Shown here: positions 14,607 to 41,755 of the stretch, in pieces
Numbering within the stretch: the first letter of the stretch is position 1
Layout: every line of letters starts with the position of its first letter
Source: an uncultured Gemmatimonadaceae bacterium
GTDB lineage: Bacteria; Gemmatimonadota; Gemmatimonadetes; Gemmatimonadales; Gemmatimonadaceae
Direction of reading: 5' to 3'
DNA length: 64,000 nucleotides
Assembly (NCBI GenBank): GCA_963761305.1
Contig: CAVXGK010000001.1
Span: 288,001-352,000, forward strand
Notes under the pieces: generated by a model
Told to the model about the DNA's origin: nothing
The model's input: only the letters and a program-made list of their open reading frames with translations
The model's database searches: none
Position numbers and translations under genes: made by a program

Positions 14607-14637
14607 GGTTCCTTTGGTCCATCGGACCTTGGCCCAA
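14607..14637. promoter_or_regulatory. Tandem copies of the TTGG-N8-CCAA-like box upstream of the sulfatase
   Basis: GGTTCCTTTGGTCCAT (14607-14622) and TCGGACCTTGGCCCAA (14622-14637). Confidence 0.5.
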
Positions 14638-14690
14638 CCGATTCTCGGCGACGCGTCAAACGGCGCGTCGCCACTCGTGTCACGACCGAA

Positions 14691-16019
14691 TCAACCGACG
14701 CGTTCGATGTCGGGCAGGCGCCAGCTCTTGTCGAAGAGCGCCGGTTTCGGCCCGTACAGCCGGAAGAACGTGAACCACGGGCGGCCGGGAGTGAGCGCGA
14801 CCCAATTCGCCGCGCCCGCCGCCGGCGCACTGCGGCCCAGATACAAATCGATCGAGCCGCCGGAGTTCGTCGCGATTCCTTCGTGATACGAATTCACTTC
14901 GGTCTTCGGCGAATTGCGGATGAACGCGCACGTCTCCGCGTCGTACACGGTCAACGCCCAGAACTGCTCCGCGGGAACGTTCGGCGGAACGCGCAGTCGA
15001 TAGGATCCATCGCCGGACAGCGGCTCGCCCGCGCTGTCGACGTAGGCCGCGAGATACATCGACGCTTTGCCGATCGTCTTCGGCGGCGCACAGGCCAAGA
15101 AGAACGTCGTCGCTCGCGCGTCGATGTCCAAGCCGTCGCTGGTGACGTACGTGAAGCCGGTTTTGACGCCGACGGGACTCGCCGACTGCCACGCACCGTT
15201 CGGCCAGAACGGCTCGCCCTCGCGCGGTTCTGACGCGATGAGTTGCTGCTGCGCGTCTCGGGCCGCTGCCTCGAGCTCGGCGCGAATCGATTCATCGGGA
15301 GCGAACGGCTTGCCCTTCTCGATGCCGAGCTGCTTGAGGCTCTCCACGATGTCGGCGTCGCGCGGAAGCATGGGTTCTTCGCTCACCATCTTCGCGAGCG
15401 CGGCGAAGAACGTGTCATCGTAGTGCATGATGGCGTCGAACAGCTTGCCGGCGACGTCGATCGCGCGCGTGGCCGGCGGATTGGCGGCTTTGGCGAACGG
15501 GTAGATCCTGATCTGCTTGACGAGGCTCAGCGCGCGATCGACGGCGCCTTGCGACGCGTCCTCGGTGATCGCGCGAAACGCGGCGTAGCCATTGTACGTG
15601 TTCGACTCCACCGCGATGTATCCGGCCGGCGCCGAGCCGGCGAGGTTCGGCGGCATCACCAGGTACTTCCCGCCTTTGCCCTCGTCCGAGCCCTTGGGTC
15701 CGACGTCGGCCAGCGGCACTTGCCACGCGTCGAGAATCGACCCGAACAGTCCCGCGCCCGCGGCCGGCGGGATCTCGAGCACGATCGGCCCGTTTGTCGT
15801 ATTGAAATTCAAATAGACATAGCGCGTCGACGCGTTGGGCGTCGTGATCTGGAATCGCCAATCGGCGAACCGCGAGAGATACGCGAGGTCGCCGTACTGC
15901 GCCCCGGCGTCACGAAAGAACGCCTGGCGCATCGCGTCGAAGCTGACGATCGGTGTGCCCCACTTCGCCGCGTGGACCGCGAGGTCGTGCAGAGCCTGGG
16001 TGTCGAGCGTCGTGGCCAC
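14691..16019 (-). CDS. DUF1254/DUF1214-domain protein
   Basis: TTPNASTRY, GPIVLEIPP, DEGKGGKYLVMPP, YRLRVPPNVPAEQFWALTVYD, FFRLYGP; GGAG before GTG 16019. Confidence 0.88.
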   Translation of the reverse strand: MATTLDTQALHDLAVHAAKWGTPIVSFDAMRQAFFRDAGAQYGDLAYLSRFADWRFQITTPNASTRYVYLNFNTTNGPIVLEIPPAAGAGLFGSILDAWQVPLADVGPKGSDEGKGGKYLVMPPNLAGSAPAGYIAVESNTYNGYAAFRAITEDASQGAVDRALSLVKQIRIYPFAKAANPPATRAIDVAGKLFDAIMHYDDTFFAALAKMVSEEPMLPRDADIVESLKQLGIEKGKPFAPDESIRAELEAAARDAQQQLIASEPREGEPFWPNGAWQSASPVGVKTGFTYVTSDGLDIDARATTFFLACAPPKTIGKASMYLAAYVDSAGEPLSGDGSYRLRVPPNVPAEQFWALTVYDAETCAFIRNSPKTEVNSYHEGIATNSGGSIDLYLGRSAPAAGAANWVALTPGRPWFTFFRLYGPKPALFDKSWRLPDIERVG

Positions 16020-16035
16020 GGAGTCTCCGTTTTTC

Positions 16036-16989
16036 TCAGCCAGCGGGCTGCGCCTGCGGGAATGTCCACGTGCCGTGCAGAATTTCCGGGCGCGGCCGAT
16101 ACAGACGCACGGTGTAGTTCCACCCGGGCATGATCGGTAGACAATTGTCGAGCGCCCCATCGCACGTGCCGAAGTGCACGGTGACCGACTGGTCGGCGTT
16201 CTTCTTGGCCGTGAGGTTGTTGATCGTGTACGCCTCGAAGGGGTTCGGCTCGAAGTAACCCTGCGCGTTGTAGACGCTGATCGACCAGAAGCCGTCGACG
16301 GGCACGTCACGCACGGTGACCCGGTACGGCGTGACGCCGTCGTTCTTTTCCGGCGTGACGTTGAGATACGTCGCGTCGCGCTCGGGGTTGCCACCCCACG
16401 CCATGGCGCTCCCGATGAGATGGCGTACCGGATCGACCTCGTTCCGCGCGCCGAACATCTTTCGCGAATCGGTGACGGTCGTGCCGAGCGCGAGGAGCGC
16501 CTCGCGCACCCGTCTCTCGCTCGCCGTGTCCCACTCCGGCAACTCGAGGCTGCCGTGTCCGCTCTGCCCGACGAGGATGGCGTCCTGGAGTGCGCGCGCC
16601 TTGCGGAGATCCTCGGGGTCGGTCGGATTCACGAGGGTCCGGACGGCAATCATTATATAGCGCGTGCTCAGGCGATCCTTCGTGTAGGTGTAGCGACCCT
16701 TCCCGTACACGACGCCCGCGGCGTACTGATCTTCGTCGATCACCATCATCGACATGAACCGGTCGCCCGGGTCCGGCAGCGTGACCGTCACCGGTCCCGC
16801 GTCGAGGTCGAACACGGCGGACGAGTAGAGCGTGTCGCGGTTCGCTCGCACGACGGTCTGCTTGTCCACCGGCATCACGTGGCGGCGATGGAGGAACTTG
16901 CCGACGCCGCCGGCCTCGTTCGCCGCCGACGCGAAATAGAGATCCGTCTCGGCGCGGCTGAAGTTGTCGGCGGTCACCAGGCTGATCAT
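16036..16989 (-). CDS. Short DUF1254/DUF1214-domain protein
   Basis: VTADNFSRAETDLYF, VVRANRDTLYSSAVFDLDAGPVT, VPVDGFWSISVYN, WNYTVRLYRP. Confidence 0.88.
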   Translation of the reverse strand: MISLVTADNFSRAETDLYFASAANEAGGVGKFLHRRHVMPVDKQTVVRANRDTLYSSAVFDLDAGPVTVTLPDPGDRFMSMMVIDEDQYAAGVVYGKGRYTYTKDRLSTRYIMIAVRTLVNPTDPEDLRKARALQDAILVGQSGHGSLELPEWDTASERRVREALLALGTTVTDSRKMFGARNEVDPVRHLIGSAMAWGGNPERDATYLNVTPEKNDGVTPYRVTVRDVPVDGFWSISVYNAQGYFEPNPFEAYTINNLTAKKNADQSVTVHFGTCDGALDNCLPIMPGWNYTVRLYRPRPEILHGTWTFPQAQPAG

Positions 16990-17009
16990 CGCGAAGGCTC
17001 CTCCGATGC

Positions 17010-17213
17010 TCAGCCGGCTTTCGGCATGAAGGCCGCGGCCACCTCGTCGATCCGATCGATGTTCGGCGTGCGGTACCCCGTGATGCCCAGATTAAGGGCG
17101 CTCACGTTGAACCAGCCGATGTCGTCGGCCATGATGAACAGGACGTTGGGTTTGTTGCCGCCGGTTGATCCCGTCGTCGCCTGCGTGGCTCTCGTGGTTT
17201 GCGTGCCCATCAT
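17010..17213 (-). pseudogene. Arylsulfatase remnant (N-terminus joined to a short C-terminal-like tail)
   Basis: KPNVLFIMADDIGWFNVSALNLGITGYRTPNIDRI then IDEVAAAFMPKAG-stop; lacks CxxxR and the rest of the fold; AGGAG RBS intact. Confidence 0.8.
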
Positions 17214-17272
17214 GATTCTCCTACTCTGGGATCGCTGGAATCACCGGGATCACTCGACACCGCGCGCGCTTC

Positions 17273-17776
17273 TCAGCCGAACGGTCCGACGTGGAAGGCA
17301 AGACTCATGACAGCGAGCGCGCCGATCACGAGAAGCAGGAACGCGACAACCAAGGTGTACGACCGGGGAAACTGGGTTTCGGCGTGGATCAGCCCTTCCG
17401 CGGCCATGTTCGCGCGCAGAGAGCGGAGTCCCGACATGAACGCGATGTCGTAGCCGATCCCGACGACCAGCATCACCAGCCCGAGCGCGACCAGCGAAAG
17501 GCCGAACCGCCGCGCTTGGCCGCTGCCGGCGGCGATCGCGCTCGTCTGCGACATGCGCTCGAAGAATTGGTAGATCGTGAAACCGAAACTGATGAGCGAG
17601 AGCGACGTCCGGATCACCGACATCAACGTGCGATCGGCGCTCAGTCGCGTGCGCTGAAATGACATGCCCGTGCGGCGCGACGACAGTTCGACCGACGGAT
17701 CGTCGAACGGGCTCGGGGTCCGTGCGGGTGAGTCGCTCGGCTGAGGGCTTGGCGAAGACGCTTCTCCCTGCGCCAT
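17273..17776 (-). CDS. DUF202/YidH-family inner membrane protein
   Basis: RTRLSADRTLMSVIRTSLSLISFGFTI plus 3 TMs. Confidence 0.88.
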   Translation of the reverse strand: MAQGEASSPSPQPSDSPARTPSPFDDPSVELSSRRTGMSFQRTRLSADRTLMSVIRTSLSLISFGFTIYQFFERMSQTSAIAAGSGQARRFGLSLVALGLVMLVVGIGYDIAFMSGLRSLRANMAAEGLIHAETQFPRSYTLVVAFLLLVIGALAVMSLAFHVGPFG

Positions 17777-17921
17777 ACGGCTATTCTCGCGTCGAGAACC
17801 GGTTCGGAACGTGGCGCCCCGCGCGCGACGAGCCCAGTTGGACTTTCGGCGCACGCGGCGCACAGCAGTCGGCCCTTTGTGCCAATGGGTTCGCCGCCGC
17901 GTAGCGGATTACGCTCGAGGC

Positions 17922-18809
17922 ATGTCCTCGGCGGTCGTCATTCAGCTCGTCGTCAAGCTGAGCCTCGCGCTCGCCGTGCTCTCCATTGGCCTGCGCTCGA
18001 GCGAGGGCGATGCGCTCTGGCTGCTCCGTCGCCCCGGCTTGCTCGCGCGATCGATGCTCTCAATGAACGTGATCGTGCCGCTCGTGGCGCTCGCCGTCAC
18101 GCAAGCGCTCGATCTGAACCCGGCGGTTCGCGTCGCACTCGTCGCGCTCTCGATCTCGCCGGTACCGCCGATCCTTCCGCATCAGACGGGGAAGGCCGGA
18201 GGCGAGGCCGCCTACGCGATCGGCTTGCTGACCATCGCGTCGCTCTTCGCCGTCGTGCTCGTCCCCGTCAGTCTCGAGATCCTGGCCGCTCTGTCGGGAA
18301 GGACGATGCACCTGGCCCCGATGGCGGTGGCAGTGTTGATGGTCGAAACGGTCTTGGCACCACTGGGGCTCGGTCTGCTGATGCGCCACCTCGCACCCGG
18401 CTTCGCCGCCCGCGCGTCCAAGCCGGTGAACGTCGTCGGGATGTTGGTGCTCGTCGCCGGCTTCGTGATCATTCTCGTCAGCGCGTGGCCTTCGATGCGG
18501 ACGCTGCTCGGCAACGGGACCGTGCTCGCCGCGGTCGTCATCACCGCGCTCGCATTGTTCGTCGGCCACGAGCTCGGCGGACCGCTCGACCTCGATCGCC
18601 CCGTGCTCGCGCTCGCGTCGGCGATGCGGCATCCGGCCGTCGCGATCGCCGTGTCGAAAGCCGCGTTTCCGGAGAGCAAGCTCGTGGCGCCGGCGGTGCT
18701 TCTCCAGTTCGTGGTGGCCGCGATCGCCGTGTTGCCGTACGTCAAGCGAAGGCAGCGCACCGCCGCGCGGCGCGCTCGTCCCGCCGCAACGCTTCAGTAT
18801 CGCCGTTGA
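17922..18809 (+). CDS. Bile acid:Na+ symporter (BASS/SBF) family transporter
   Basis: LLRRPGLLARSMLSMNVIVP, SPVPPILP, GHELGGP...VLALASAMRHPAVA; about 9 TMs. Confidence 0.85.
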   Translation: MSSAVVIQLVVKLSLALAVLSIGLRSSEGDALWLLRRPGLLARSMLSMNVIVPLVALAVTQALDLNPAVRVALVALSISPVPPILPHQTGKAGGEAAYAIGLLTIASLFAVVLVPVSLEILAALSGRTMHLAPMAVAVLMVETVLAPLGLGLLMRHLAPGFAARASKPVNVVGMLVLVAGFVIILVSAWPSMRTLLGNGTVLAAVVITALALFVGHELGGPLDLDRPVLALASAMRHPAVAIAVSKAAFPESKLVAPAVLLQFVVAAIAVLPYVKRRQRTAARRARPAATLQYRR

Positions 18810-18928
18810 CCGCGACACGCCATTCGCGCGTGATCACACGGACCGGACTCGGGGCAGCAGAAGGTCCAATTTGGGCGGCCATGGCGGGCGAGCGAGCTTG
18901 CCTTCGTCACTGTTGGTAGGAGATCCTC

Positions 18929-19765
18929 ATGAAGTTTTCCAGAAACGCTCTGCGAGGGGCCGCCGGAATGGCGGCGCTCGCGGCGGCGGCGGCGACCCCG
19001 CATCGGTCCGCCGCGCAAGACACCACGAGAACCCGCGACACCACGCGAACCGAGGCGTCGGACACAAGCGCCATCGATCCCGACGCGATGGCCGCACTCG
19101 AGAAGATGGGCGCGTATCTGCGCACGCTGAAATCCTTCGGCGTGCATGCGGTCGTCACGACAGAAGACGTGGCGGACGACGGAGAGAAGGTCCAACTGTC
19201 GAGCACCGCTGACCTCGTCACCGAGCGGCCCAACCACCTGCGGGTCGAGGTCGTCGACCAGCGTCAGCCGCGTACGATGTACTACGACGGGAAGACGTTC
19301 ACGATGTGGGCGCCGCGCGTGAAGTTCTACGCGTCAGTCGCCGCACCGCCGACGATCCTCGACCTCGTCGACACGCTGAACGACAAGTACGACATCGAGC
19401 TGCCGTTCGTCGACCTCTTCCGCTGGGGCACGCCCGAATCGGACGCCGCCGACATCACGCAAGCGACCGACGTCGGCCCCGTCGCCATCAACGGCGTGAC
19501 ATGCGAACAGTACGCGTTCCGCCAGAAGGGCGTCGACTGGCAGGTGTGGATTCAAAACGGCAATTTCCCGCTCCCGCTCAAGCTCGTCCTGACGACGACG
19601 ACCGACGACGCGCGTCCGCAGCACACCTCGCTGTACACGTGGAACCTCGCCCCGTCGTTCAACGACAAGGCGTTCGTCTTCGAACCGCCGAGCGACGCGA
19701 AGAAGATTACGTTCGCCGAAGTGGCGACCGCTCGCGCGGCCGAGAAATCCGGGGGGAACAAGTGA
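18929..19765 (+). CDS. DUF2092 periplasmic (LolA-like) protein
   Basis: Signal peptide; IDPDAMAALEKMGAYLRTLKSF, RPNHLRVE, YDGKTFT, DWQVWI..G..PLPLKLV; AGGAG RBS. Confidence 0.88.
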   Translation: MKFSRNALRGAAGMAALAAAAATPHRSAAQDTTRTRDTTRTEASDTSAIDPDAMAALEKMGAYLRTLKSFGVHAVVTTEDVADDGEKVQLSSTADLVTERPNHLRVEVVDQRQPRTMYYDGKTFTMWAPRVKFYASVAAPPTILDLVDTLNDKYDIELPFVDLFRWGTPESDAADITQATDVGPVAINGVTCEQYAFRQKGVDWQVWIQNGNFPLPLKLVLTTTTDDARPQHTSLYTWNLAPSFNDKAFVFEPPSDAKKITFAEVATARAAEKSGGNK

Positions 19766-20355
19766 AGCACATCATTGGACGACTCGTGCTCGCCCTGCTC
19801 GCGCTGGTGCTGATCGTCGGCCACGCCGACGCCCAGCGTCGTGGAGGTGGCGGCCGGCGTGGCGGCGGCGGCGGATTCCGCGGCGGCGGTGGCGGCGGAT
19901 TCCGTGGATCGGCTCGGGCGAGCGTCACACGCCCGAACTTCAGCCGTCCCGCAACCCGACCGGCGTTCAACCGCGGCCCCGTCACTACTACGCGCCCGGG
20001 GAACGTGATCGCGAATCGTCCCGGGAACATCGTGAACAATCGCCCGGGCAACATCGTCAACAACCGCCCGATCTACAACCGCGACGTCGCCGTGATCGGC
20101 GGCGGCGGCTACTACGGCAACAACTGGGACGGGTGTTGCTACTACGGTTCAGGCGCTCGCTTGGGCGCAGCGGCAGTCGGCTACGCAGCCGGCGCCGTCG
20201 CCGCCTCGAACGCCGGTAGCGTCGTGTACGACCTGCCGTCGTCCTGCACGACGACCATCGTCAATGGCATCACGTACCAACAGTGCGGCAACATCTGGTA
20301 CAAACCCGAGTTCGAGGGAACGACGACCAGCTACGTGGTCGTGAATCGCCCCTGA
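19762..20355 (+). CDS. Secreted Gly/Arg-rich low-complexity protein with C-terminal Cys-containing domain (DUF6515-like)
   Basis: GTG overlaps upstream stop; signal peptide ending ADA-Q; RGGGG and RPGNIVNN repeats; LPSSCTTTIVNGITYQQCGNIWYKP. Confidence 0.8.
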   Translation: MKHIIGRLVLALLALVLIVGHADAQRRGGGGRRGGGGGFRGGGGGGFRGSARASVTRPNFSRPATRPAFNRGPVTTTRPGNVIANRPGNIVNNRPGNIVNNRPIYNRDVAVIGGGGYYGNNWDGCCYYGSGARLGAAAVGYAAGAVAASNAGSVVYDLPSSCTTTIVNGITYQQCGNIWYKPEFEGTTTSYVVVNRP

Positions 20356-20378
20356 TCGACCGCACCACCCACAACTAG

Positions 20379-20463
20379 CGAACGCACCGGTTTCACCCGA
20401 CGCGCACGAGGTCCTCCGCCCGTGCCGTCGGGGCTCGAGCGAAACCGGTGCGTTCGTCTTTTT
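20379..20463 (+). terminator. Long hairpin with T-tract; intrinsic terminator or structured RNA
   Basis: CGAACGCACCGGTTTC (20379-20394) pairs with GAAACCGGTGCGTTCG (20441-20456); inner stems CCCGACG/CGTCGGG and GCACG/CGTGC; followed by TCTTTTT. Confidence 0.7.
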
Positions 20464-20524
20464 GCGCGTATTGGAGCTCGGCTCCAAGTCGCCCATGCGC
20501 ATCGCGTGGGAACTCCCGGACAAA

Positions 20525-20657
20525 GCTCGAAGCTCTTGCTCAAGGCTCTTGCTCAAGGCTCTTGCTCAAAGCTCCGGCTCGCAGCTCTGGCTGGCAGCTC
20601 CTGCTCGAAGCCTCTTGCTCGAAGCTTCTTCCTCGAGGCTCCCCACTCGACGCTCGA
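20525..20657. repeat. Degenerate 13-14 bp tandem array, about 10 units
   Basis: gctcgaagctctt-gctcaaggctctt-gctcaaggctctt-gctcaaagctccg-gctcgcagctctg-gctggcagctcct-gctcgaagcctctt-gctcgaagcttctt-cctcgaggctcccc-actcgacgctcga. Confidence 0.85.
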
Positions 20658-20743
20658 TACTGCGAAGTGGCCGAGCCGCGGAACCAGTTGGTCCCGCGAC
20701 TCGGCCACCGCTCGCTCATCGACGGTTCGAGACTCTCAGCGAA

Positions 20744-22336
20744 TCAATGGATCGGCGGCTTCGCCGCTTGCCTAAAGTCGATGGGCGGCAGGAATGCCGG
20801 CGTCACCCGGCCGATGCACGACGTCGGCACCGGATCGCGCGGCGCGCGCAAGAACGAGTCGATGAGCAATGCCGAACAGGCCATGGCGAGCGGACGCGCG
20901 AACGCGACGTGACCGGCGGTGGCGAAATGCGCACGCTGCGCGGCCGAGAGTGTCTTCGCCGCGTCGTCGGCCAACGACGACGGCGTCTGTGCATCGTACC
21001 CCGACGAGATGAGCAATGTCGGAATGGAGCTCGTCACCGGGTCGACCGCTTCCCGACCCGAGAACGGAACGCCGAGCGCGTCGCACAGCATGCGATTGCC
21101 GGCTTTCGGTTCACCTTGCGGACGATCGCCGCAGAGCGCGATGTAATAGATGAGCGGTGCGGTCTGGCGCGACGCGGTCTGGAGCGAAGGGTCGATCGCC
21201 GCGGCGAGAAAGACGCGCAACGCGAATTCGTCGTGCAGCGTGTCTTCGGACGCGAGCTCGGTGATAATCCGCGGCACGCTGGCGCGCATGCCTTCATCGC
21301 TCGACGCGACGCCGAGCACGCTCAGAATTCCCGCGCCCGCGACCTCGATCGTACGCCACGGGTCGCTCGTCGCGAACTGCGCCGTGCGGCGAAGATGTCC
21401 GCCGGCGCTGTCGGCGAGCTTCGAGATCGACTGCGCGAGATCGCCGTACTGGGCCACGCAGAGCGAATCGGTGCGGCATTCGTTGACCACCTGCGCGACG
21501 ATCTTGCGCCCCGCGTTGGCGACGTACGTCGAATCGAGAATTTGCGTCGCCTGCGGCGGGGCGACGCCGTCGAGGATCGACGCCTCGACCATGTCCGGAT
21601 GGCGCCGCATGAAATGCAACGACTCGCGGCTGCCGTACGATGCCCCGAACAGGATGAGCTTCTGGTAGCCGAGCGCGTGAGTGACATCGGCGATGTCTTC
21701 CACGGCCGGCAGCGTCGTGAAGTTGGCCGGGTTCACGCCGCGCGCCCGAAGATCCTTGGCTCGCTGCGCCAGCGAATCCCTGAGCGGTTTGACGGCCAGG
21801 TCACGCCGTGCACGCGGTTCGAACAGAATGGTGCCGAGGTCGGGCGACGCACGCTCCGGCACCGGCGAAAAGCCGCGACGGTCGAACGCGATGATCGGAT
21901 GGTCGCGCAACAGCGACTGGCCCGTCGGCGTCTCGAGCAACACGCGCTGCGCCGCGTCGATCGACGATTCGCCGGGGCCGCCCGGCAGAAACATCACCGG
22001 ATTGCCGTGAGCGCTGGGCGACGCGTACACGACCACGGGCAGCACGACCGCCATCAACCGCGAGTCCTTCGGGTGGGCGCGATCCTGCGGAACCGTCACC
22101 GTCCCGCATTTCATCGTGGCGTCGACGCCGGCCGGCGTGGTTCCGAAGGTCGAGTTGCACGTCAGCTCGGTGAACCGAGGCATGACGTCGAATGCCTTCG
22201 ACGTCTGTCCTTGCGCGCTCAGCACGTTCGTTCCGGCGCCGGCGAGCACCACCGCGACCAGCGCCACTGCGGCGGGCACGGCACTGCGCTTCGCCTCGCC
22301 TCCAAACGTTCGGACCTGCGTCCTTCCCCGCGACAT
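20744..22336 (-). CDS. Secreted alpha/beta hydrolase (TAP-like peptidase/esterase)
   Basis: CGTVTVPQDR, LPGGPGES, FDRRG, GASYG nucleophile, GYDAQTP, AGHV; signal peptide; GAGGTGG RBS. Confidence 0.85.
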   Translation of the reverse strand: MSRGRTQVRTFGGEAKRSAVPAAVALVAVVLAGAGTNVLSAQGQTSKAFDVMPRFTELTCNSTFGTTPAGVDATMKCGTVTVPQDRAHPKDSRLMAVVLPVVVYASPSAHGNPVMFLPGGPGESSIDAAQRVLLETPTGQSLLRDHPIIAFDRRGFSPVPERASPDLGTILFEPRARRDLAVKPLRDSLAQRAKDLRARGVNPANFTTLPAVEDIADVTHALGYQKLILFGASYGSRESLHFMRRHPDMVEASILDGVAPPQATQILDSTYVANAGRKIVAQVVNECRTDSLCVAQYGDLAQSISKLADSAGGHLRRTAQFATSDPWRTIEVAGAGILSVLGVASSDEGMRASVPRIITELASEDTLHDEFALRVFLAAAIDPSLQTASRQTAPLIYYIALCGDRPQGEPKAGNRMLCDALGVPFSGREAVDPVTSSIPTLLISSGYDAQTPSSLADDAAKTLSAAQRAHFATAGHVAFARPLAMACSALLIDSFLRAPRDPVPTSCIGRVTPAFLPPIDFRQAAKPPIH

Positions 22337-22443
22337 CGTCCACCTCGGCTGCGTATTCGATTGCGCGCGCCGGTGGAGACTGGTGTGTTTCCACCTGCGC
22401 TGCGCACGATGCGCAACGTCGATTGCGACCTGCATTCCCTGCA

Positions 22444-22494
22444 TTGGCCGATGTGCCAAAGACCGGGGGCGGACCACGTGGACTGTTGGTCCAA
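22444..22494. promoter_or_regulatory. Two TTGG-N8-CCAA-like boxes in the divergent hydrolase/ompA region
   Basis: TTGGCCGATGTGCCAA (22444-22459) and TGGACTGTTGGTCCAA (22479-22494). Confidence 0.55.
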
Positions 22495-22637
22495 TGCGAA
22501 TGATCGGCGCACCGAGCCGCCGCGCCGCGGCATCGTTCGTGAGATTCAGGCGGTTACCCGGAGCGCGCCACCTCGGTGAGCCGCTCGGGGCCTGTCAGTT
22601 TACCTCACGCGGATACGTGAGATCAGGAGTGATTGCT

Positions 22638-23612
22638 ATGCCAAGAACCATGATGCTCGACATGCAGGACCTGACACGACCGGCGCGCACCACGGCCGGT
22701 CTGTTGGCCCTGCTGTGTGCGCTCGCGGCCGTCCCGCGCCTCTCGGCGCAGAACGTGTCGTCATCCAGGCCGCAGCCGACGCTGAGCTACGTGCAGGGTG
22801 CGGAAGTCAAGATCACCGGCTACATCATCAGCCGAAGCGGCGACAGCGTGCTCGTTCGTGACGAGACGACCGACGCGATCAGCCTGGTGATGTTGAACGA
22901 TGAGACCAAAATCTCGACCCCGTCGGGCACGCTGAACCTCGGTCGTGACCGCCGCGATGCGGAAACACTCATCCCCGGCCTCCGCGTTCGCTTGAAGGCG
23001 ACCGGCGGAATGAGTGGTGAAGCCGTCGCGAGCTCGATCCTCTTCCACACGAGCGCGGAGCGCGTGGCGGAAGGCGTCGCTGCCGGTACGGTGGACCTGA
23101 AGGCGTTTACTGACTCGGCCATTACGGCGACGTCGGACACCATCACGGCCATCACCAACCGCGCCAAGGATACGCTCAACGCGATCGTCGGCAGCGCACG
23201 CAGCCAGGTCGCGTCGTTGAACCGCCGCATCGCGGACGTGAACAAGTTCGACCTGTCGCAATCGCGCACGGTCTTCTTCGCCACAGGCCGCTGGGAGATT
23301 CTCCCCGACGGACAGCGAACCCTCGATGACATGATCGCCGCCAGCAAGAACCAGACGTGCGGTTGCGTCTTCGAAGTCACCGGTTTCACGGATTCCCAAG
23401 GCCACCCGGTGATGAACGACGTTCTCAGCTATCGTCGCACCATGAGCGTGATCAAGTACCTCACGCAGAACGGCGTCGACCTTCGCAGCATTGCGACTCC
23501 GCTCGGCTACGGCGAAATGAAGCCGATCGCCTCGAACGAGTCTGCCTCGGGCCGGGCGATGAATCGTCGCGCCGAGGTTCGGTTGCTCGTCAGCCGCGCG
23601 TCGCTGTACTAG
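22638..23612 (+). CDS. OmpA/MotB C-terminal peptidoglycan-binding domain protein with N-terminal beta domain and helical linker
   Basis: VFFATG, EVTGFTDSQG...NDVLSYRR..SV..YL...GV, GYGEMKPIASNESASGRAMNRRAEV; AGGAG RBS. Confidence 0.9.
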   Translation: MPRTMMLDMQDLTRPARTTAGLLALLCALAAVPRLSAQNVSSSRPQPTLSYVQGAEVKITGYIISRSGDSVLVRDETTDAISLVMLNDETKISTPSGTLNLGRDRRDAETLIPGLRVRLKATGGMSGEAVASSILFHTSAERVAEGVAAGTVDLKAFTDSAITATSDTITAITNRAKDTLNAIVGSARSQVASLNRRIADVNKFDLSQSRTVFFATGRWEILPDGQRTLDDMIAASKNQTCGCVFEVTGFTDSQGHPVMNDVLSYRRTMSVIKYLTQNGVDLRSIATPLGYGEMKPIASNESASGRAMNRRAEVRLLVSRASLY

Positions 23613-23694
23613 TGACGACTCGGCAACTCGATCGACGTCCCCACGCGAGTTCGTCTCACGGCGGGATCGTACGTCTGACGTTGGCGGGTTCGGC

Positions 23695-23724
23695 TCGCCT
23701 CCCGGCTCAACAGCCGGGAGGCGA
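23695..23724. other. Perfect 13-bp stem-loop without U-tract between co-oriented genes
   Basis: TCGCCTCCCGGCT-caac-AGCCGGGAGGCGA. Confidence 0.7.
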
Positions 23725-32808: not shown

Positions 32809-32870
32809 TCCTATGTCGCCGACGACCTGTGCGGGGCAACTATGCCATCCGCACGAACCCCCTCCTCAAA

Positions 32871-33320
32871 ATGTCTCTTCCTCTTCGGCAGTCCGATCTC
32901 GCGCGTCAGAGCTTCCTCAGCGCGACCAACATGCTTCCTCCCGTCGTCCTGGTAGTGGACGATCATGAGGAAAGTCGCACCATCGCTCGCCTGGTGCTCG
33001 AGCGCGCTGGGTTCCGCGTGGCCGAGGCCTCCACGGGGTCCGAGGGTCTGCGGCTCGCCGGGTCGTTGCGGCCGGCGGCGGTCCTGCTCGACCTGATCAT
33101 GCCGGGGCTCGACGGGTGGGAGCTGGCGCGCCAGCTCCATACCAACCCCGTGACGTCCCGCGCCGCGATCATCGCGCTCACCGCGCTGGCCACGCCCGAG
33201 GATCACGATCGTGCGCTGCTGGCCGGCTGCGACGCGGTGCTCACGAAGCCCGTGCGGCCGATCCGGATCGTCGAAACGGTCCAGGAATTCGTCGGCCCCA
33301 GCGCGGTCATTCGAATCTGA
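32871..33320 (+). CDS. Single-domain response regulator (DivK-like; start 32871 or 32931)
   Basis: VLVVDD, VLLDLIMPGLDGWE, IIALTA, AGCDAVLTKP. Confidence 0.88.
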   Translation: MSLPLRQSDLARQSFLSATNMLPPVVLVVDDHEESRTIARLVLERAGFRVAEASTGSEGLRLAGSLRPAAVLLDLIMPGLDGWELARQLHTNPVTSRAAIIALTALATPEDHDRALLAGCDAVLTKPVRPIRIVETVQEFVGPSAVIRI

Positions 33321-33377: not shown

Positions 33378-34058
33378 CTAGCTGAAGGCCGAGAGCTGCT
33401 CCACGCGAGGCGCCGTTTCTTCGGGCGCCTCTCCCTTGAGCAGGTCGAACATCCGGACCAGATCCGCGACGGATTCCGCCTGCATCTTCGTCATCACGCG
33501 CGCACGGTGGACCTTGATGGTCTTTTCCGTCGTGCCGAGCGCCGCGGCGATCTGCTTGTTGAGCCGGCCCGCCGCCACCCAGGAAAACACTTCGTGCTCG
33601 CGGCGGGTGAGTCTGCTGGCGCGCGATCGAAGTTCCGTAACGAGAGCTTCACGTTGCCACTGCTGCCGCGCGGCGTCCGCCGCGCGCCCGAGTGAGGCGA
33701 GGAGTACTGGCTCGTCGCACGGCTTCTCGAGAAAATCCAACGCGCCGGCGCGAATCGCACGCACCGAGGTCGACACGTCGCCGTGCCCCGAGAGAAACAC
33801 CGTCGGAATCTTGATGCCTCGCTCGGTGAGCATCGACTGCAGCGTCAGGCCGTCGGTGCCGGGCATGCGGAGATCGACCAGCAACATCTGCGGCTGCCAC
33901 CGTTCGAGCGACGAGAGGAACGCCGTGGCCGAGGGGAATGTCGTGACGTCGTAGCCGCACATCGACAGCATGCGCGACAACGACCGCAAGACCGTGGCAT
34001 CGTCGTCCACGAGCGCGATCTGCCACCGAGGATCGGGACTCTTCGGAATTGCTAGCAT
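33378..34058 (-). CDS. FixJ/StyR-type (LuxR HTH) response regulator
   Basis: IALVDDD, LLVDLRMPGTDG, FLSGHGD, GALDFLEKP, LTRREHEV...LNKQIA..LGTTEKTIKVHRARVMTKM. Confidence 0.93.
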   Translation of the reverse strand: MLAIPKSPDPRWQIALVDDDATVLRSLSRMLSMCGYDVTTFPSATAFLSSLERWQPQMLLVDLRMPGTDGLTLQSMLTERGIKIPTVFLSGHGDVSTSVRAIRAGALDFLEKPCDEPVLLASLGRAADAARQQWQREALVTELRSRASRLTRREHEVFSWVAAGRLNKQIAAALGTTEKTIKVHRARVMTKMQAESVADLVRMFDLLKGEAPEETAPRVEQLSAFS

Positions 34059-35247: not shown

Positions 35248-35453
35248 CGTGCGCAGCCCACCCCGTACAGTCCATTGGACCGCACCAAGGGCGCCGACCG
35301 CGTTTGGATGTTCGACACCAAGTCCGCGCATTGGGCACCGAAAGGTCCCCGCTTCGCGCTTCGGCCGTCTCCGGCAGAAGCCGCGCCCGGGGTGGGGCCG
35401 CAATATTATGATACAGTTCCCCGACGGCCTAGAGTCCCCCTCTCGGCGGCATG

Positions 35454-35476
35454 TTGGACGTTGGTCCAATGGTCAA
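35454..35476. promoter_or_regulatory. Best-match palindromic box upstream of the kinase-regulator operon
   Basis: TTGGAC-GTTG-GTCCAA (35454-35469) with overlapping TTGGTCCAATGGTCAA (35461-35476); AT-rich -10-like segment at 35402-35414 on the minus strand. Confidence 0.65.
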
Positions 35477-35581
35477 TGGTTCACCATAAGCCGTATCCCG
35501 TCGGTCACGGCAGAACCACGAGCGACCCCGGGGCCGTCGCGGCAGGCTTCCGCGGTCGCTGAAGTCGCTCGAGAAAGCGGA

Positions 35582-36319: not shown

Positions 36320-36414
36320 ACGTCCTCCAGAGCCCCTGCCCTATCGTTGGGTGACTCACGCGCCGCCTCGGGCACGCGTCCTCCCATGATGTGGACGAGC
36401 CTCGACGTCCCGTA

Positions 36415-36510
36415 TTGGCTGATGGCCCGTTGGCCTTTGTTCAATCAGCGGGCGCGGCTCCGCCGGCGTTCCCGAAACGCGGATGTGGTCGGTAGTGGAC
36501 TAAGGTCCAC
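36415..36510. promoter_or_regulatory. Cluster of palindromic boxes in the divergent DUF4136/MASE1-kinase region
   Basis: A-GTGGAC-TAAG-GTCCAC-T (36494-36511); weaker TTGGCTGATGGCCCGT (36415) and GTTGGCCTTTGTTCAA (36429); candidate TCGACT-18-TATACC promoter directly downstream. Confidence 0.6.
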
Positions 36511-36573: not shown

Positions 36574-39204
36574 ATGAACAACTCTGGAGAGGGGAGCGCT
36601 TTGTTCCGTGCGCGTCGCTGGCACCCGGCCGGGGCCGCCGTCGCGACGGCGATCGCGTATTACATCGGCGCGAATATCGGACTGGCGCTCAAACCGAGCG
36701 GCGACCCGATCTCCACGCTGTGGCCGCCGAACGCCATCCTCCTCGGCGCGTTGCTGCTCGCGCCCTCCGGCTCGTGGGCCGCGATCATTCTCGCGACGCT
36801 CCCCGCGCATCTCCTCGTCCAGCTACAAGGCGGCGTTCCGCTGCCGATGGCTTTCTCGTGGTACGTGAGCAACTGCGCCGAGGCGCTCATCGGCGCGGCG
36901 TGCATCCGCTACACCATCATGCGCCCCGTCCGCTTCGACAGCGTGCGGCGGGTCGCGATCTTCGTCGGATTCGGAGCGCTCCTCGCACCGTTCCTCTCGT
37001 CGTTCCTCGACATCGCCTTCGTCGAGTGGAACGGCTGGCAGACCGCCGGTACCGATTTCTGGTCGCTCTGGCGCACACGCTTCTTCTCGGACGTGCTCGC
37101 CATCCTCACGATCGTTCCGATCATCCTGCAGCTCGACCGGGACACGTGGAAGACGCTTCGAGCCATGCCAAGGCGTCGGTTCGTCGAAGCCGCGCTCATG
37201 GGCGCCAGCTTGTTGGTGGTGTGCGCCATCGCGCTGGGGCGCGAGCCGTCGGCCCCGCTCACAGCCCCCGTGCTGCTCTGCATTCCACTGCCGTTCTTGC
37301 TCTGGTCGGCGGTGCGTTTCGGCCCGGGCGGAGCGAGCGCGTGTCTGTTCACGTTCTCGGTTCTGTCCATCTGGGGCGCCATCAACGGCCGAGGACCCTT
37401 CGTCGCGCCGCCCGACCCGGACGACATTCTGTCGCTCCAACTGTTCCTGATCGTCACGTACATCCCCATCATGGTGCTCGCGGCGGTCTTCTGCGAACGC
37501 GAACGCGCCGAATCGTTGGCCCGCCGCAACGAAGAACGCCTCCACTTGGTGCTCGACTCCGCGCAGATGGGCACCTGGGATCTCGACATCTCGTCCGGCC
37601 GCACGACTCTCTCCGTTCGCTCACGCGAGATCTTCGGCCTGTCGCATTCGCCGTTGGAGGTCGGCTGGTCGACGTTCACCGCATCGCTCGACGACGCCGA
37701 GCGTGCGCGCGTCGAAGCGGCGACGTCTCGCGCCATCGAATTCGACGAGCCGTTCGAAGTCGAGGCGCGGGTCGAGCTGCCCTCGGCCATCACACGCTGG
37801 GTGCTGAGCAAGGGCCGCGTCGTTCGCGACGACTCCGGGCGGCCCGTGCGCATGCTCGGCATTCACGTGGACGTCACCGAGCGCAGACAAGCCGAAGCCG
37901 CGTTGCGCGAAGAGGCCACGCTCCGCGCGCTGAGCGAAGAGCTCGAGCAGCGAGTCGCCGAACGCACGGCCGAGCTCTCGCTCGTCAACCGTGTGTTGCT
38001 CGAGGAGATCGACGTGCGCGAGCGGATCGGACGCGCGCTGCGCGCTTCCGAGGAGCGTTTTGCCAAGGCATTCCGCGCCAGCCCGGACGCCATCTCCATC
38101 ATCCGGCGATCCGACGCGCGCATCATCGAGGTCAACGAGCGCTGGGTCGCGATGTTCGGCTTCGCTCGCGAGGAGGCGATCGGGCAAACGCTTCCCGCAC
38201 TCGGCATCTCGCCGCGTGATCCGCATCGCGATGGACTCGGAATGCTCTCCACGGCGCAAGGGTCGATGCGCGACGCCGAAGTCGAGCTGCGCAACCGGCG
38301 CGGCGAGATGCTGTACGCGCTCGTGACGTCCGAAACCGTCGAGGTCGCCGGCGAGCAGTGCCTGATCACGATGGTCAGAGACGTCACCGAGCGGCGCCGC
38401 GCCGAGCACGAAGTCGTCGAGCAGCGTCGACAGCTGGCGCACCTCGGGCGTGTCGCGCTGCTCGGCGAGCTCTCTGGAGCCCTCGCCCACGAGTTGAATC
38501 AGCCGCTCGCCGCGATTCTCGCCAACGCGCGCGCCGGCCAGCGCATGCTCTTCCGCGACGAGCTGGATCGCGTCGAGCTGAGCCGCATCCTCGAAGACAT
38601 CGCCGCCGACGACCGGCGCGCCGGCAGCGTCATCCACCGCGTGCGCGCGATGCTGCGACAGGGCGAGACCGAACCGCAGCGCGTCGTGGCGAACGACCTC
38701 ATTGCCGAGGTGCTCGACCTGGCGCACAGCGATCTCATTTCGCGCAGCGTGTTGGTGACCACGCGACTCGATCCGTCACTCCCGTCGGTGGCCGCCGATC
38801 GCGTGCAACTGCAGCAGGTGTTGCTCAATCTGATCGTCAATGCGTGCGACGCGATGGGAGAGAACGCAGCGACCGATCGCCGGATCTGGATCGCCACCGC
38901 GAACGAAGGCGCGGCGATCCGCGTGTCGGTCTCCGACTGCGGCGCCGGGATCAGCCGCCACCCGGTCGATTCCGTCTTCGAGCCGTTCGTCACGTCCAAG
39001 CCGCACGGGCTGGGACTCGGCCTTTCGATCTGTCGCTCGATCGTCGACGGCCACGGCGGCCGTATGTGGGCCGCGAACAACGAGGATCGCGGCGCGACGT
39101 TCACTTTCCTGCTCCCGCGCACCGAAGTCGCGCTCGAGGTGCCGCCCGTCTGGCGTTCGCCAGAGTTCTCGCACGGGCGCGCCGAGAACCCGGCGCGGAA
39201 CTGA
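36574..39204 (+). CDS. MASE1-PAS-PAS membrane sensor histidine kinase
   Basis: LWPPNAILLGALL MASE1 with about 9 TMs; two PAS domains (MGTWDLD..., FAKAFRASPDAISI); LAHELNQPL, LLNLIVNACDAM, GLGLGLSIC. Confidence 0.93.
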   Translation: MNNSGEGSALFRARRWHPAGAAVATAIAYYIGANIGLALKPSGDPISTLWPPNAILLGALLLAPSGSWAAIILATLPAHLLVQLQGGVPLPMAFSWYVSNCAEALIGAACIRYTIMRPVRFDSVRRVAIFVGFGALLAPFLSSFLDIAFVEWNGWQTAGTDFWSLWRTRFFSDVLAILTIVPIILQLDRDTWKTLRAMPRRRFVEAALMGASLLVVCAIALGREPSAPLTAPVLLCIPLPFLLWSAVRFGPGGASACLFTFSVLSIWGAINGRGPFVAPPDPDDILSLQLFLIVTYIPIMVLAAVFCERERAESLARRNEERLHLVLDSAQMGTWDLDISSGRTTLSVRSREIFGLSHSPLEVGWSTFTASLDDAERARVEAATSRAIEFDEPFEVEARVELPSAITRWVLSKGRVVRDDSGRPVRMLGIHVDVTERRQAEAALREEATLRALSEELEQRVAERTAELSLVNRVLLEEIDVRERIGRALRASEERFAKAFRASPDAISIIRRSDARIIEVNERWVAMFGFAREEAIGQTLPALGISPRDPHRDGLGMLSTAQGSMRDAEVELRNRRGEMLYALVTSETVEVAGEQCLITMVRDVTERRRAEHEVVEQRRQLAHLGRVALLGELSGALAHELNQPLAAILANARAGQRMLFRDELDRVELSRILEDIAADDRRAGSVIHRVRAMLRQGETEPQRVVANDLIAEVLDLAHSDLISRSVLVTTRLDPSLPSVAADRVQLQQVLLNLIVNACDAMGENAATDRRIWIATANEGAAIRVSVSDCGAGISRHPVDSVFEPFVTSKPHGLGLGLSICRSIVDGHGGRMWAANNEDRGATFTFLLPRTEVALEVPPVWRSPEFSHGRAENPARN

Positions 39205-40835: not shown

Positions 40836-40917
40836 GCTGAGAGATAAGGCAAGGACGGGACCGACAGAGAGCCTCGATTGGGCCGCCGCCCGCCCCCGCT
40901 CTACTACTATAGAATCT

Positions 40918-40944
40918 GTCCACCCGTCCACCCGTCCACCCGTC
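40918..40944 (+). repeat. (GTCCACCC)x3 tandem repeat in 5' leader
   Basis: Three exact units between TAGAAT (40910-40915) and the ATG at 40948. Confidence 0.85.
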
Positions 40945-40947
40945 TTC

Positions 40948-41406
40948 ATGTACTACGCAGTCGTCGCGTGTCTCATGTTCCTCTTTCCCGCCGCGTCGAT
41001 CGCCGCGGAGGCGACGATGTACGGCGTGACGTTCGATTTTCCACTCATCGGCAGGTGGTTCGTGCTCTGGTCGGTCGGCGTGAGACTCGCGCTCGCTGGT
41101 CTTCGTCAGATCGTCCAGCCCATGTACACGGCGAGGGTGATCCTCGGCGTCCACGGCGAGGACTCCCTCATCCTCGTCCGCGAGCTCGGCTTCGCCAATC
41201 TGGCCATCGGCGCGATTGGATTGGTCAGCTTCCTTCGTCCGGAGTGGCAGCTGGCCGGTGCGCTCGCCGGCGGAATCTTTTACGTGCTCGCCGGCGTGAA
41301 TCACCTCGTGCGTCGAGGGCGCAATCGCCTCGAGAACGTCGCGATGGTCTCCGACCTCTTCGTTGGACTCATCCTTCTCGTGGTCTGCGTGTCCTCCCTG
41401 TTTTGA
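40948..41406 (+). CDS. Small multi-pass membrane protein (DUF6790-like)
   Basis: GRWFVLWSVGVRL.LAGLRQ, VRELGFANLAIG, ENVAMVSDL. Confidence 0.78.
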   Translation: MYYAVVACLMFLFPAASIAAEATMYGVTFDFPLIGRWFVLWSVGVRLALAGLRQIVQPMYTARVILGVHGEDSLILVRELGFANLAIGAIGLVSFLRPEWQLAGALAGGIFYVLAGVNHLVRRGRNRLENVAMVSDLFVGLILLVVCVSSLF

Positions 41407-41700
41407 GATTCCGATTCGCCTGAGCGGAGGCGAGCTTGTCATCGTCCGCGCAACTCGGTGGCACGTGGAACTAGCCGCGCCCGACCCATGCGCTGGCCTG
41501 GAAAGAGATCGACTGGGAATCACCGCAGTCGTCCACAACTTGCTCGATAGCCACGCGCCGTACTTCGGGGCGTTCAACGTGAATCGGCAACCCGGCGAGC
41601 TCGAGCGTTTCCCCACCTCTTTGGGGCGCGGAGCGTGCGACTCACCCTTCGACGACCACTCGGCGCATCCGAAGACGGCCGACGCTAGCAGGTGGCCGGT

Positions 41701-41755
41701 TGGGACCAAAGGCCAATGGTCTGCCGATTGCACGCCCGTAGCGTCAGAGTATCAT
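41701..41755 (+). promoter_or_regulatory. Palindromic box plus sigma-70-like promoter
   Basis: TGGGACCAAAGGCCAA (41701-41716) followed by TTGCAC-16 nt-TATCAT (41728-41755). Confidence 0.55.

Follow-up and report, generated by a model that had tools for sequence, protein, structure and literature searches.

A 20-bp palindromic box as the predicted operator of a FixJ/NarL-type response regulator in an uncultured Gemmatimonadaceae bacterium and in other phyla

The window analysed in this study is a stretch of 64,000 nucleotides from the genome of an uncultured Gemmatimonadaceae bacterium. A short palindrome recurs through an accessory block of this window. Is it a genuine regulatory site, and if so, which protein reads it and with what effect? 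An earlier note had described it as a 16-bp motif, TTGGAC-N4-GTCCAA, with a free spacer. All ten strings listed there are present where the note had placed them, and the sole perfect TTGGAC-N4-GTCCAA in the 5.2-Mb genome is at 35454. The palindrome in the window is genuine. It is a 20-bp box, YRTTGGMC-YWWR-GKCCAAYR, and its middle four bases are not free but under constraint (YWWR). Changing the spacer of 4 between TTGGAC and GTCCAA to other lengths reduced the number of matches in the block (0–3 vs. 4). The register proposed for 17870 and 22479 was wrong. The half-site at 18864 is indeed the right half of a site, which scores just 3.3 bits, and the string at 24400, described as upstream, lies within the last codons of ORF 23793-24425 by our gene calls. 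Sites at 17836, 31057, 32796, 35459, 36413, and 36428 were missing from the note. The sites, with the offset of the -10-like hexamer after the box, are as follows:

14620..14639, minus strand: box, 18.2 bits; -10-like GAGACT at offset 21 on this strand; in front of the sulfatase (12164-14536), DUF1254/1214 (10695-12143), and 9503-10597 genes
17836..17855, minus strand: weak box, 10.7 bits, kept in relatives; CACGTT at offset 22; faces DUF202, a sulfatase remnant, and two DUF1254/1214 genes (14691-17863)
17868..17887, plus strand: degenerate box, 2.5 bits here and up to 18.8 at the orthologous site in relatives; directed at the SBF transporter gene 17922-18809, with TACGCT at offset 22
18852..18871, plus strand: half-site, 3.3 bits, the weakest of all sites; GAGCTT at offset 22; faces DUF2092 (18968-19765) and DUF6515
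22442..22461, minus strand: box, 16.9 bits; directed at the alpha/beta hydrolase gene 20744-22336, with GACGTT at offset 21
22477..22496, plus strand: box, 15.1 bits; OmpA-family gene 22650-23612 on this side; offset 21/22 without a -10-like hexamer
24398..24417, plus strand: box, 14.5 bits, in the 3' end of ORF 23793-24425; directed at DUF2490, bestrophin-like, DUF2490, and DUF1622 genes (24451-26925), with CACACT at offset 21
29551..29570, both directions: box, 22.5 bits, common to two predicted promoters that stand back to back, one towards 29606 (GAAACT at offset 21) and one towards CobW-REC-FGE, 26959-29485 (CAACAT, likewise at offset 21)
31057..31076, plus strand: box, 10.7 bits, within the 3' end of the gene for the second regulator; directed at the GAF histidine kinase, with TAGGAT at offset 22
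32796..32815, plus strand: box, 13.7 bits; directed at receiver protein 32829-33320, with AACTAT at offset 22
35452..35478, minus strand: double box; 35452-35471 has 26.1 bits, the genome's best, and a second copy shifted by 7 bp (35459-35478) has 17.3 bits, with GACTCT at offset 22; alternative -10 TATCAT at offset 38; faces the PAS kinase-regulator operon
36413..36447, minus strand: box pair; 36413-36432 has 11.8 bits, with CATCAT at offset 21 on the DUF4136 side (35582-36262), and a second, weak copy that overlaps it at 36428 has 9.5 bits
36493..36512, plus strand: box, 19.5 bits; CACGCT at offset 21, spacing unchanged in relatives; faces the MASE1-PAS-PAS histidine kinase
41699..41718, plus strand: box, 18.2 bits, before ORF 41775-42137; geometry ambiguous (TAGCGT at offset 20 or TTGCAC-N16-TATCAT at offset 31)

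The enrichment of the box was investigated in the window and across the genome. The 16-mer with up to three mismatches was found 21 times in the window vs. 16.5 expected, and 15 of 100 shuffles gave at least 21. Since this raw count was at chance level, a matrix and a position test were needed. With a matrix of 60 distinct sites from diverged relatives, 6/15 gene-upstream intergenic regions of the block reached 12 bits, compared with 27/2134 in the rest of the genome (6.3 when shuffled). The Fisher p for the block was 3.7e-8, in a test that is only partly independent because the 60 sites were first found with a matrix from seven window sites. With the 60-site matrix, though not as the raw 16-mer, the motif was more frequent in the block than in other intergenic DNA. 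None of the 17 gene-upstream intergenic regions of the window outside the block reached 12 bits, and the absence of the box from 1–9.5 kb and 42–64 kb, reported by eye, holds. The likelihood of a motif found by EM failed to separate the block (81.6) from 20 control intergenic sets (31.6–309.6), several of which were repeat-driven and one of which overlapped the block. Genome-wide, the box alone had 27 upstream matches outside the block vs. 11 when shuffled, and column-permuted matrices gave 4–42. This enrichment is marginal; outside the block, the box is by itself weak evidence.

The conservation of the box was investigated in relatives and in other phyla. In 39 stretches of relatives with reshuffled gene order, 153 intergenic matches of at least 10 bits were found in 105 kb vs. 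29 in 588 kb of coding DNA, so the box survives gene rearrangement; the box at 29551..29570 was kept in 13 stretches. In the genus, at least three pattern matches were found in 12/14 genomes with a close orthologue of the regulator vs. 0/12 genomes without a match, and the reversed pattern gave 22 and 23 matches. Relatives do not count as independent cases, and the genus pattern came in part from them. In a cross-phylum set, 80 GTDB loci chosen by protein alone and three plasmid loci held 146 intergenic matches of at least 12 bits vs. 9.2 when shuffled, with 33 in coding DNA. A site of at least 16 bits was present at 52/69 non-Gemmatimonadota loci (2.1 when shuffled), with ten other phyla represented. 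EM without a seed returned the box from these loci as nATTGGACC-WW-GGTCCAATn, beside FixJ/NarL-type response regulators with an E[KR]T[VI]KVHR helix. Within 1.5-kb flanks, a strong box was found at 40/69 loci with this helix vs. 0/27 FixJ-like regulators with other helices, although the helix could not be parsed in four of the 27. A strong box was lacking at some loci. No 16-bit site was found at 17/69 cross-phylum loci, some of which are short contigs, no box within 1.5 kb at locus L155, and no intergenic site at the locus of a Cupriavidus plasmid regulator that has the helix.

The block encodes two regulators of this type and several kinases:

33378..34058, minus strand: REC + LuxR/GerE HTH response regulator P0001; helix EKTIKVHR
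30318..31088, plus strand: second REC + GerE regulator, P0002; helix EKTVKVHR; 43% identical to P0001
34069..35247, minus strand: PAS histidine kinase whose gene immediately precedes that of P0001 in a shared operon; candidate cognate kinase
36574..39204, plus strand: MASE1-PAS-PAS histidine kinase; candidate input
29606..30313, plus strand: HisKA protein; H-box kept, no Pfam HATPase match, ATP-binding boxes degenerate by eye; possibly a pseudokinase or phosphotransfer protein
31132..33320, plus strand: GAF histidine kinase and two single-domain receivers

Both regulators matched the receiver domain PF00072 (E 1.7e-24 and 2.7e-25). P0001 retains the receiver residues DDD, D62, S90, and K112. 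Its C-terminal part matched PF00196 (GerE/LuxR HTH), and the predicted model (pLDDT 89.4) resembles StyR and FixJ. The receiver pocket and four-helix HTH of sequence and model are those of the NarL/FixJ family. Eleven GerE domains in the genome were above the Pfam cut-off, and only two carry the helix, both in the block. Clustering was seen in a quick tree (3 changes vs. 26 when shuffled), with no supported clade; E[IV]T[VA]K-type regulators nested among the EKT-type with weak support. The sensors of 40 partner kinases were scanned and included PAS (25/40), MASE1 (3/40), dCache, GAF, propeller, and TPR domains. Such differences make one conserved signal unlikely.

P0001 is the likely main binder of the box. 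The earlier note had assigned the block to both local regulators. There is some chance, though not a large one, that P0002, alone or as a heterodimer with P0001, is the main or obligatory binder, with a kinase/receiver relay setting the dimer. P0002 has the same helix and intact receiver residues, sits under the conserved 29551 box, and was found next to the first regulator in many members of the genus; boxes that overlap with a shift of 7 or 15 bp also recur (14 cases among loci L041–L152). However, boxes were still present in the genomes G020, G041, and G057 and the more distant G018, where only the first regulator was found, the cross-phylum loci resemble P0001 (NKQIA motif), and no genome with the second regulator alone was seen. 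The second regulator is probably dispensable, and P0002 may be a co-binder or partner of P0001. The proposed regulon itself draws support from the cross-phylum co-location, the helix control, and the promoter phasing, but it is not confined to the block.

The spacing between the box and the promoter was investigated by searching for -10-like hexamers. The hexamer nAnnnT occurred at offset 21 after the box in 47/109 gene-facing flanks and at offset 22 in 22 more, with a background of 4.6%. Diverged Gemmatimonadota had it at offset 21 in 25/80 flanks and at offset 22 in 13 more, and the window had one at offset 21/22 in 13/24 flanks. The hexamer at offset 21 was also raised where the flank faces no called gene (8/32 and 11/107). 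A model of box plus -10 found 23 genome matches at the true spacer, nine of them in the block, vs. 1–7 at ten decoy spacers. The box centre is predicted at about -43.5, overlapping the -35 region, which is a class II activator position; from the -10 phasing, the 20-bp box lies near -42 to -44, as at lux-box-type sites. This fixed phasing supports the activator geometry read from 36495 and 41701, where the box had been placed just upstream of a -35; at 36495 it overlaps the -35 instead, and 41701 is ambiguous. In Sinorhizobium medicae WSM419, the phasing was seen for only some boxes.

The 20-bp palindrome is probably the operator of 33378-34058, which would activate from the class II position. 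A phosphorylated P0001 dimer would bind the box over the -35 region. There it would switch on weak promoters of sigma-70 type that serve sulfatase, envelope, and amide/amino-acid genes. The cognate kinase would be the PAS kinase 34069-35247 or the MASE1 kinase 36574-39204. P0001 may also activate the genes of its own kinases in a positive feedback, as suggested earlier, and boxes do face both the PAS kinase-regulator operon and the MASE1 kinase. Direct binding, suggested by the co-location and the helix match, and activation rather than repression are inferred; dependence on phosphorylation is expected from what is known of the family. It is improbable that the regulator uses the box chiefly for repression, or has both effects because some boxes block promoters. 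Three strong window boxes (35452, the best, 22477, and 41699) lack a -10 at offset 21/22, and EL222 represses when its site is in the promoter core, according to the available text of PMC5001607. Against this, the dominant spacing sets the box over the -35 with degenerate -10 hexamers, as in activator-dependent promoters, and hexamers showed no peak at the offsets expected of a box lying between -35 and -10.

The closest tested specificity, on sequence comparison, is that of EL222, followed by DosR. Among PDB matches to the HTH, EL222 (LOV-HTH, Erythrobacter litoralis; PDB 8a5r, 3p7n) ranked behind only the FixJ C-terminal domain, with 27/55 aligned residues identical. Its helix is EKTVKMHR, and the E-K-T-V-K-x-H-R recognition helix is present in the local regulators. 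The EL222 12-bp consensus RGNCYWWRGNCY, as quoted in PMC10521638, a paper citing the primary work, matched the central 12 bp exactly in 76/92 cross-phylum sites and with at most one mismatch in 91/92. Just 3/16 window sites matched it exactly, and the EL222 C120 operator scored 2–6 bits on our matrices. The two specificities therefore overlap and differ in the flanks. The local box has further conserved bases on either side, YRTT...AAYR. With its site in place of the lux box over the -35, EL222 activates a sigma-70 promoter, again by the available text of PMC5001607. The targets differ, and EL222 is a one-component light sensor, whereas the local proteins have a receiver domain and kinases. 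No LOV domain was found in the regulators, and a LOV motif was found in 0 of 4335 predicted proteins.

It is also improbable that an unlinked factor reads the box (e.g., a sigma factor, a Crp/Fnr-family protein, or the OmpR-type regulator 8726-9475) and that the FixJ-type genes are no more than its targets. Regulator operons are themselves preceded by boxes, so that co-location could mean targets, and sigma-factor genes lie downstream of boxes in three loci. However, the box tracks the helix type and matches the specificity measured for EL222, which has that helix, as far as PMC10521638 reports it, and it is at background in genus members without the regulator. The raw count and palindromes of equal or higher EM likelihood in random intergenic sets might suggest that the box is an RNA hairpin, a repeat, or a chance match in DNA of high GC content. 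This reading is largely refuted by conservation of sequence rather than pairing, unpaired centre included, by the fixed -10 spacing, by one box serving both strands, by zero Rfam matches in the window at gathering score, and by recurrence in genomes of 44–72% GC.

The earlier comparison with DosR was apt, second to that with EL222; the comparison with StyR/TodT was not. StyR was the best full-length PDB match, with helix EVTVK vs. EKT[IV]K here, and no box of at least 16 bits was found near StyR/TodT/NodW-type E[IV]T[VA]K regulators. The StyR/TodT/NodW site is AT-rich, ATAAAC-N4-GTTTAT. The DosR helix, which we take to be EKTVK, agrees with the local one. DosR/DevR of Mycobacterium tuberculosis is NarL-type and, in the available portion of PMC3177182, uses an 18–20-bp palindrome with half-site GGGACT at -42.5 and -63.5, with primary and weak secondary boxes. 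That half-site shares GGAC(T/C) with the local TTGGAC(C/T), which has T where DosR has G (T in 73–84% of sites), and DosR targets and kinases differ. FixJ of rhizobia shares the REC + LuxR HTH fold, and databases label the local proteins 'FixJ family'. The local kinases contain PAS domains. FixJ/FixL proper was rejected, as the regulators scored 184.6 and 168.5 against an NCBIfam equivalog cut-off of 255 and the kinases 278.5 and 166.9 against 850. The FixJ helix PRT[IV]EV differs from EKT[IV]K, no box was found beside regulators with FixJ-like helices in the helix control, and the published site TAAGTAATTTCCCTTA, as given in the available text of PMC4999443, is unrelated to the box. StyR/TodT and FixJ proper are poorer comparators than EL222. 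A description of this regulator-box pairing was not found in the literature searched.

The predicted targets in the block are as follows:

9503..29485, both strands: sulfatase, three DUF1254/1214, DUF202, SBF, DUF2092, DUF6515, and hydrolase genes; further OmpA, two DUF2490, bestrophin-like, DUF1622, FGE, REC, and CobW genes

The regulon likely reaches beyond the block to an aspartase-asparaginase, a glutaminase, porins, and another sulfatase. A close aspartase orthologue was found in 9/30 genus genomes, each with the regulator, and box and -10 were present in all nine and in the source genome. An aspartase paralogue control was weak: among 20 distant homologues, many of which seem to have coding DNA upstream, one had a box, in a genome with the regulator. 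The amidohydrolase site of the source genome had 14.5 bits with a -10, and L245 likewise had a -10; boxes in relatives were weak (at least 12 bits in 5/11). The aspartyl-protease site C2:2813854 was kept in five close relatives only and was absent from eight more distant homologues, five of them in genomes with the regulator. It was rejected as a regulon member, being probably recent or spurious.

The signal may be acid or pH/ion (or ammonia) stress. This is a guess, based on glutaminase, asparaginase, aspartase, channels, and porins among the predicted targets and on an aspartate decarboxylase-antiporter pair adjoining the regulator in one Sinorhizobium strain. The megablast matches for the cluster did not include S. 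meliloti 1021, so the available text of an acid-stress paper on the sister strain (PMC4941405) is uninformative. The available parts of a Bradyrhizobium iModulon paper (PMC10454721) and of a quorum-sensing preprint contained nothing relevant. MASE1 as an aspartate/redox modulator, in the accessible text of PMC3718329, is a lead for the source genus only.

A LuxR-type dimer acting from a class II site is in itself a familiar mechanism. Tentatively, the regulators may form an uncharacterised two-component family of at least eleven phyla with one fixed operator/promoter geometry, a phosphorylation-switched sibling and possible source of the DNA-binding domain of EL222, that runs a pH/ammonia and envelope-remodelling regulon. 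If true, about ten DUF families (DUF1254/1214, 2092, 3300, 2950, 3313, 4136, 202, 1622, 2490) and many orphan sulfatases would share a role under one switch, testable by one deletion in a cultured host. An operator and promoter architecture would be assigned to a very common, anonymous 'FixJ family' class. As five helix residues tell this class apart, its regulons would become predictable in uncultured phyla. Native regulators could act on EL222 optogenetic promoters in hosts that carry them, and the family would offer natural kinase-controlled parts with EL222-type geometry.

The earlier note had proposed that a 16-bp palindrome, TTGGAC-N4-GTCCAA, marks a regulon across the block (window 9.5–42 kb) and is read by two local regulators. 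All ten of its strings were present where it placed them. A naive count of the 16-mer was at chance level (21 found, 16.5 expected), and the only perfect copy in the whole genome was at 35454. Unseeded palindromic EM on the 15 block intergenic regions returned cnttGGcCcatgGgCCaang, with a likelihood below that of some control sets. A 7-site window matrix was then applied to 39 stretches of relatives. It gave 153 intergenic matches in 105 kb versus 29 coding matches in 588 kb, and the sites kept their position before the same genes despite changed gene order. The consensus from diverged relatives was the 20-bp palindrome YRTTGGMC-YWWR-GKCCAAYR (the box; sites are named by window start coordinate).

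Rescoring with a 60-site matrix found the box in 6/15 block regions versus 27/2134 other regions (6.3 shuffled); this comparison is partly circular because the 60 sites, from diverged relatives, were themselves located with the first matrix. With the 60-site matrix, the box was found in 0/17 regions in the rest of the window. Rescoring added 17836, 31057, 32796, 35459, 36413, and 36428. In the same rescoring, 17868 and 18852 proved degenerate. The palindrome is real, and the earlier interpretation as a whole was supported with corrections. Overlapping box copies, shifted by 7–8 or 15 bp, were observed at window 14604–14639, 35452–35486, and 36413–36447; these may permit alternative registers or oligomer binding.

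The window (C1:288001–352000) had a GC content of 66%. Genes (4335 in the genome) were called with our own hexamer model, so gene starts are approximate. The features were as follows:

9.5–42 kb: block genes (sulfatase, formylglycine-generating enzyme, three DUF1254/1214, DUF202, SBF, DUF2092)
9.5–42 kb: further block genes (OmpA, DUF2490, bestrophin-like protein, DUF1622, CobW, DUF4136)
9.5–42 kb: signalling genes (four kinase-type genes, three single receivers, two REC-GerE regulators)
6432–7304 (−): sigma-70 factor, regions 2–4, flanking the block
8726–9475 (+): OmpR-type regulator, flanking the block
17010–17213 (−): sulfatase N-terminal remnant, 67 aa
29606–30313: HisKA protein, H-box intact, no recognisable ATPase domain
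41775–42137 (+): 120-aa ORF behind the 41699 box

A box was looked for before the flanking sigma-70 and OmpR-type genes, and none was found. At the place of the remnant, relatives carry a 514-aa sulfatase; about 1.3 kb is gone in this genome. The HisKA protein, conserved upstream of the second regulator within the genus, is a possible pseudokinase. The 120-aa ORF had no match in Pfam or NCBIfam. A 13-bp unit (about eight copies) forms an intergenic tandem array at 20525–20641 between convergent genes, and short 8-bp arrays of a related unit lie at 40918–40944 and 53782–53819 (GTCCACCC / CCGTCCAC).

The genome encodes 11 GerE domains that pass the Pfam cut-off; among these, the recognition helix EKT[IV]KVHR occurred only in the two block regulators. 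GTDB genomes were scanned with the helix peptide, and the best 80 of 590 confirmed loci were chosen blind to DNA motifs. These 80 and three plasmid loci held 146 intergenic matches versus 9.2 in shuffled sequence. Of the loci collected in this way, 69 had record titles outside Gemmatimonadota. A site scoring 16 bits or more was present in 52/69 (2.1 in shuffled sequence), and EM without a seed on these loci returned nATTGGACC-WW-GGTCCAATn from about 91 sites. By record title, the box-positive phyla among these loci were Pseudomonadota, Acidobacteriota, Myxococcota, Thermodesulfobacteriota, Verrucomicrobiota, Planctomycetota, Methylomirabilota, Omnitrophota, Bacillota, and Coatesbacteria. A strong site was absent from 17 of the 69 loci, from a Cupriavidus plasmid regulator, and from one further locus (L155).

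FixJ-like regulators of 61 Pseudomonadota genomes served as the control set: 30 of the 33 matches were fetched, irrespective of the helix. Within 1.5-kb flanks, a 16-bit site was found for 0/27 control regulators without the helix and 2/3 with it, one being a locus already counted; at matched flanks, the helix set (from the best 80 of 590) gave 40/69. Within the genus, at least three pattern matches were found in 12/14 genomes with a close orthologue versus 0/12 without a regulator match, these genomes being kin and not independent. Four genus genomes with weaker regulator matches had no pattern matches.

Sites for the spacing analysis were picked by box score only, so the downstream sequence provided an independent test. 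Outside Gemmatimonadota, 47/109 gene-facing flanks had the −10-like hexamer nAnnnT starting exactly 21 nt from the box end, with 22 more at 22 nt (4.6% at other offsets); in diverged Gemmatimonadota, 25/80 had it, with 13 more at 22 nt. Flanks facing no called gene gave 11/107 and 8/32. The strict form TAnnnT at 21 nt was found in 34/118. Taken as the −10 element, the hexamer would place the box at −53 to −34, centred at −43.5. The lux box and an engineered EL222 site activate sigma-70 polymerase from this position (PMC5001607).

In the window, 13/24 gene-facing flanks had the hexamer, including those of two degenerate sites from the earlier list. The 29551 box had a hexamer on either side and would drive two divergent operons. 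Sites 35452, 22477, and 41699 fell outside the 21/22-nt spacing; they are possibly of class I or accessory type. The MASE1, PAS, and GAF kinases and both regulator operons each have a box in front of them, suggesting positive feedback on kinases and regulators.

Across the genome, the box plus −10 model gave 23 matches at the true spacer (9 in the block) versus 1–7 at ten decoy spacers; about ten promoters outside the block are therefore likely real. Those named by Pfam, on contigs C1 and C2, included:

C1:1132041: second sulfatase
C2:1355067: aspartase-asparaginase-porin-bestrophin
C2:262561: amidohydrolase-DcaP-glutaminase
C2:777889: second MASE1 kinase with receiver
C2:2813854: aspartyl protease, site poorly conserved

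The aspartase-asparaginase genes lie within the block in relatives of about 90% identity. A close aspartase orthologue was present in 9/30 genus genomes and the amidohydrolase in 11/30, each among the 14 bearing the regulator. The box and −10 preceded the aspartase gene in 9/9 genus copies and in the copy of this genome. Elsewhere in the genome, a 16.9-bit box at C1:1720561 immediately precedes the gene for a 744-aa multihaem cytochrome c, after a third sulfatase and a carbonic anhydrase; it has no −10 at 21/22 nt. Two strong boxes (18–19 bits; C2:1056252 and 1057331) precede the gene of a MetA-like outer-membrane protein and three others that match no Pfam family. A 16-bit box at C2:104323 precedes a Na+/H+ exchanger gene, where class II phasing (a box overlapping −35) is absent.

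Of the 117 non-signalling genes that follow boxes in the various phyla, 109 were scanned. Families seen repeatedly were sulfatase, FGE, DUF2092, DUF3300/2950, DUF3313, MetA-like, DcaP, CobW, MscS-type channels, sigma-70 factors, and fasciclin; glutaminase, OmpA, SBF, and ion-channel genes occurred singly, along with many unrelated or unnamed genes. In Sinorhizobium, arylsulfatase and DUF3300/2950 genes surround the regulator, and strain ABS7 has aspartate 4-decarboxylase and its antiporter next to it; boxes are present. On pSMED01 of S. medicae WSM419 (NC_009620.1), the regulator falls in the interval 243039–245715, and boxes start at 246068, 243429, 241733, and 239833. In three deltaproteobacterial loci (L098, L111, L112), boxes occur in pairs before a sigma-70-family gene, which suggests a cascade. 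Boxes also occur within the 3′ end of regulator genes (L204 17596, L205 17362, L264 18268, window 31057); in Sinorhizobium, the box codes for the C-terminal peptide IGPKSN and points towards the next receiver gene.

In the PDB, the HTH was matched best, apart from the C-terminal domain of FixJ, by EL222, a light-activated LOV-HTH factor with helix EKTVKMHR. The EL222 consensus is given as RGNCYWWRGNCY in PMC10521638, which cites the original selection work. This 12-mer matched 76/92 cross-phylum sites exactly and 91/92 within one mismatch, and just 3/16 window sites exactly. The EL222 operator C120 scored 2–6 bits on the box matrices and the bare 12-mer occurred 77 times in the genome; the box flanks therefore add specificity. 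DosR shares the GGAC core and the −42.5/−63.5 layout, as far as the excerpt of PMC3177182 goes. The site of FixJ proper, in the portion of PMC4999443 available, differs from the box. Assignment of the block proteins to FixJ/FixL proper was rejected, with scores under both cut-offs.

Ammonia-releasing and proton-consuming enzymes occur with channels and porins, so acid or ion stress is tentatively suggested as the signal. A role in scavenging sulfate esters and amide nitrogen is an only slightly less probable alternative, and low oxygen or redox is a less likely one. Among 40 of 57 adjacent partner kinases scanned, MASE1 was found in 3 and PAS in 25; since the partners vary, the input may differ by lineage. 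No description of the regulator class or operator was found in the literature searched, also with literal motif strings; figure-only motifs, most subscription journals, RegPrecise and DAP-seq supplements were outside the reach of this search, so an earlier description is possible. The mechanism is already of a known kind; the pairing of this family with its operator, its reach, and the link to EL222 appear to be new.
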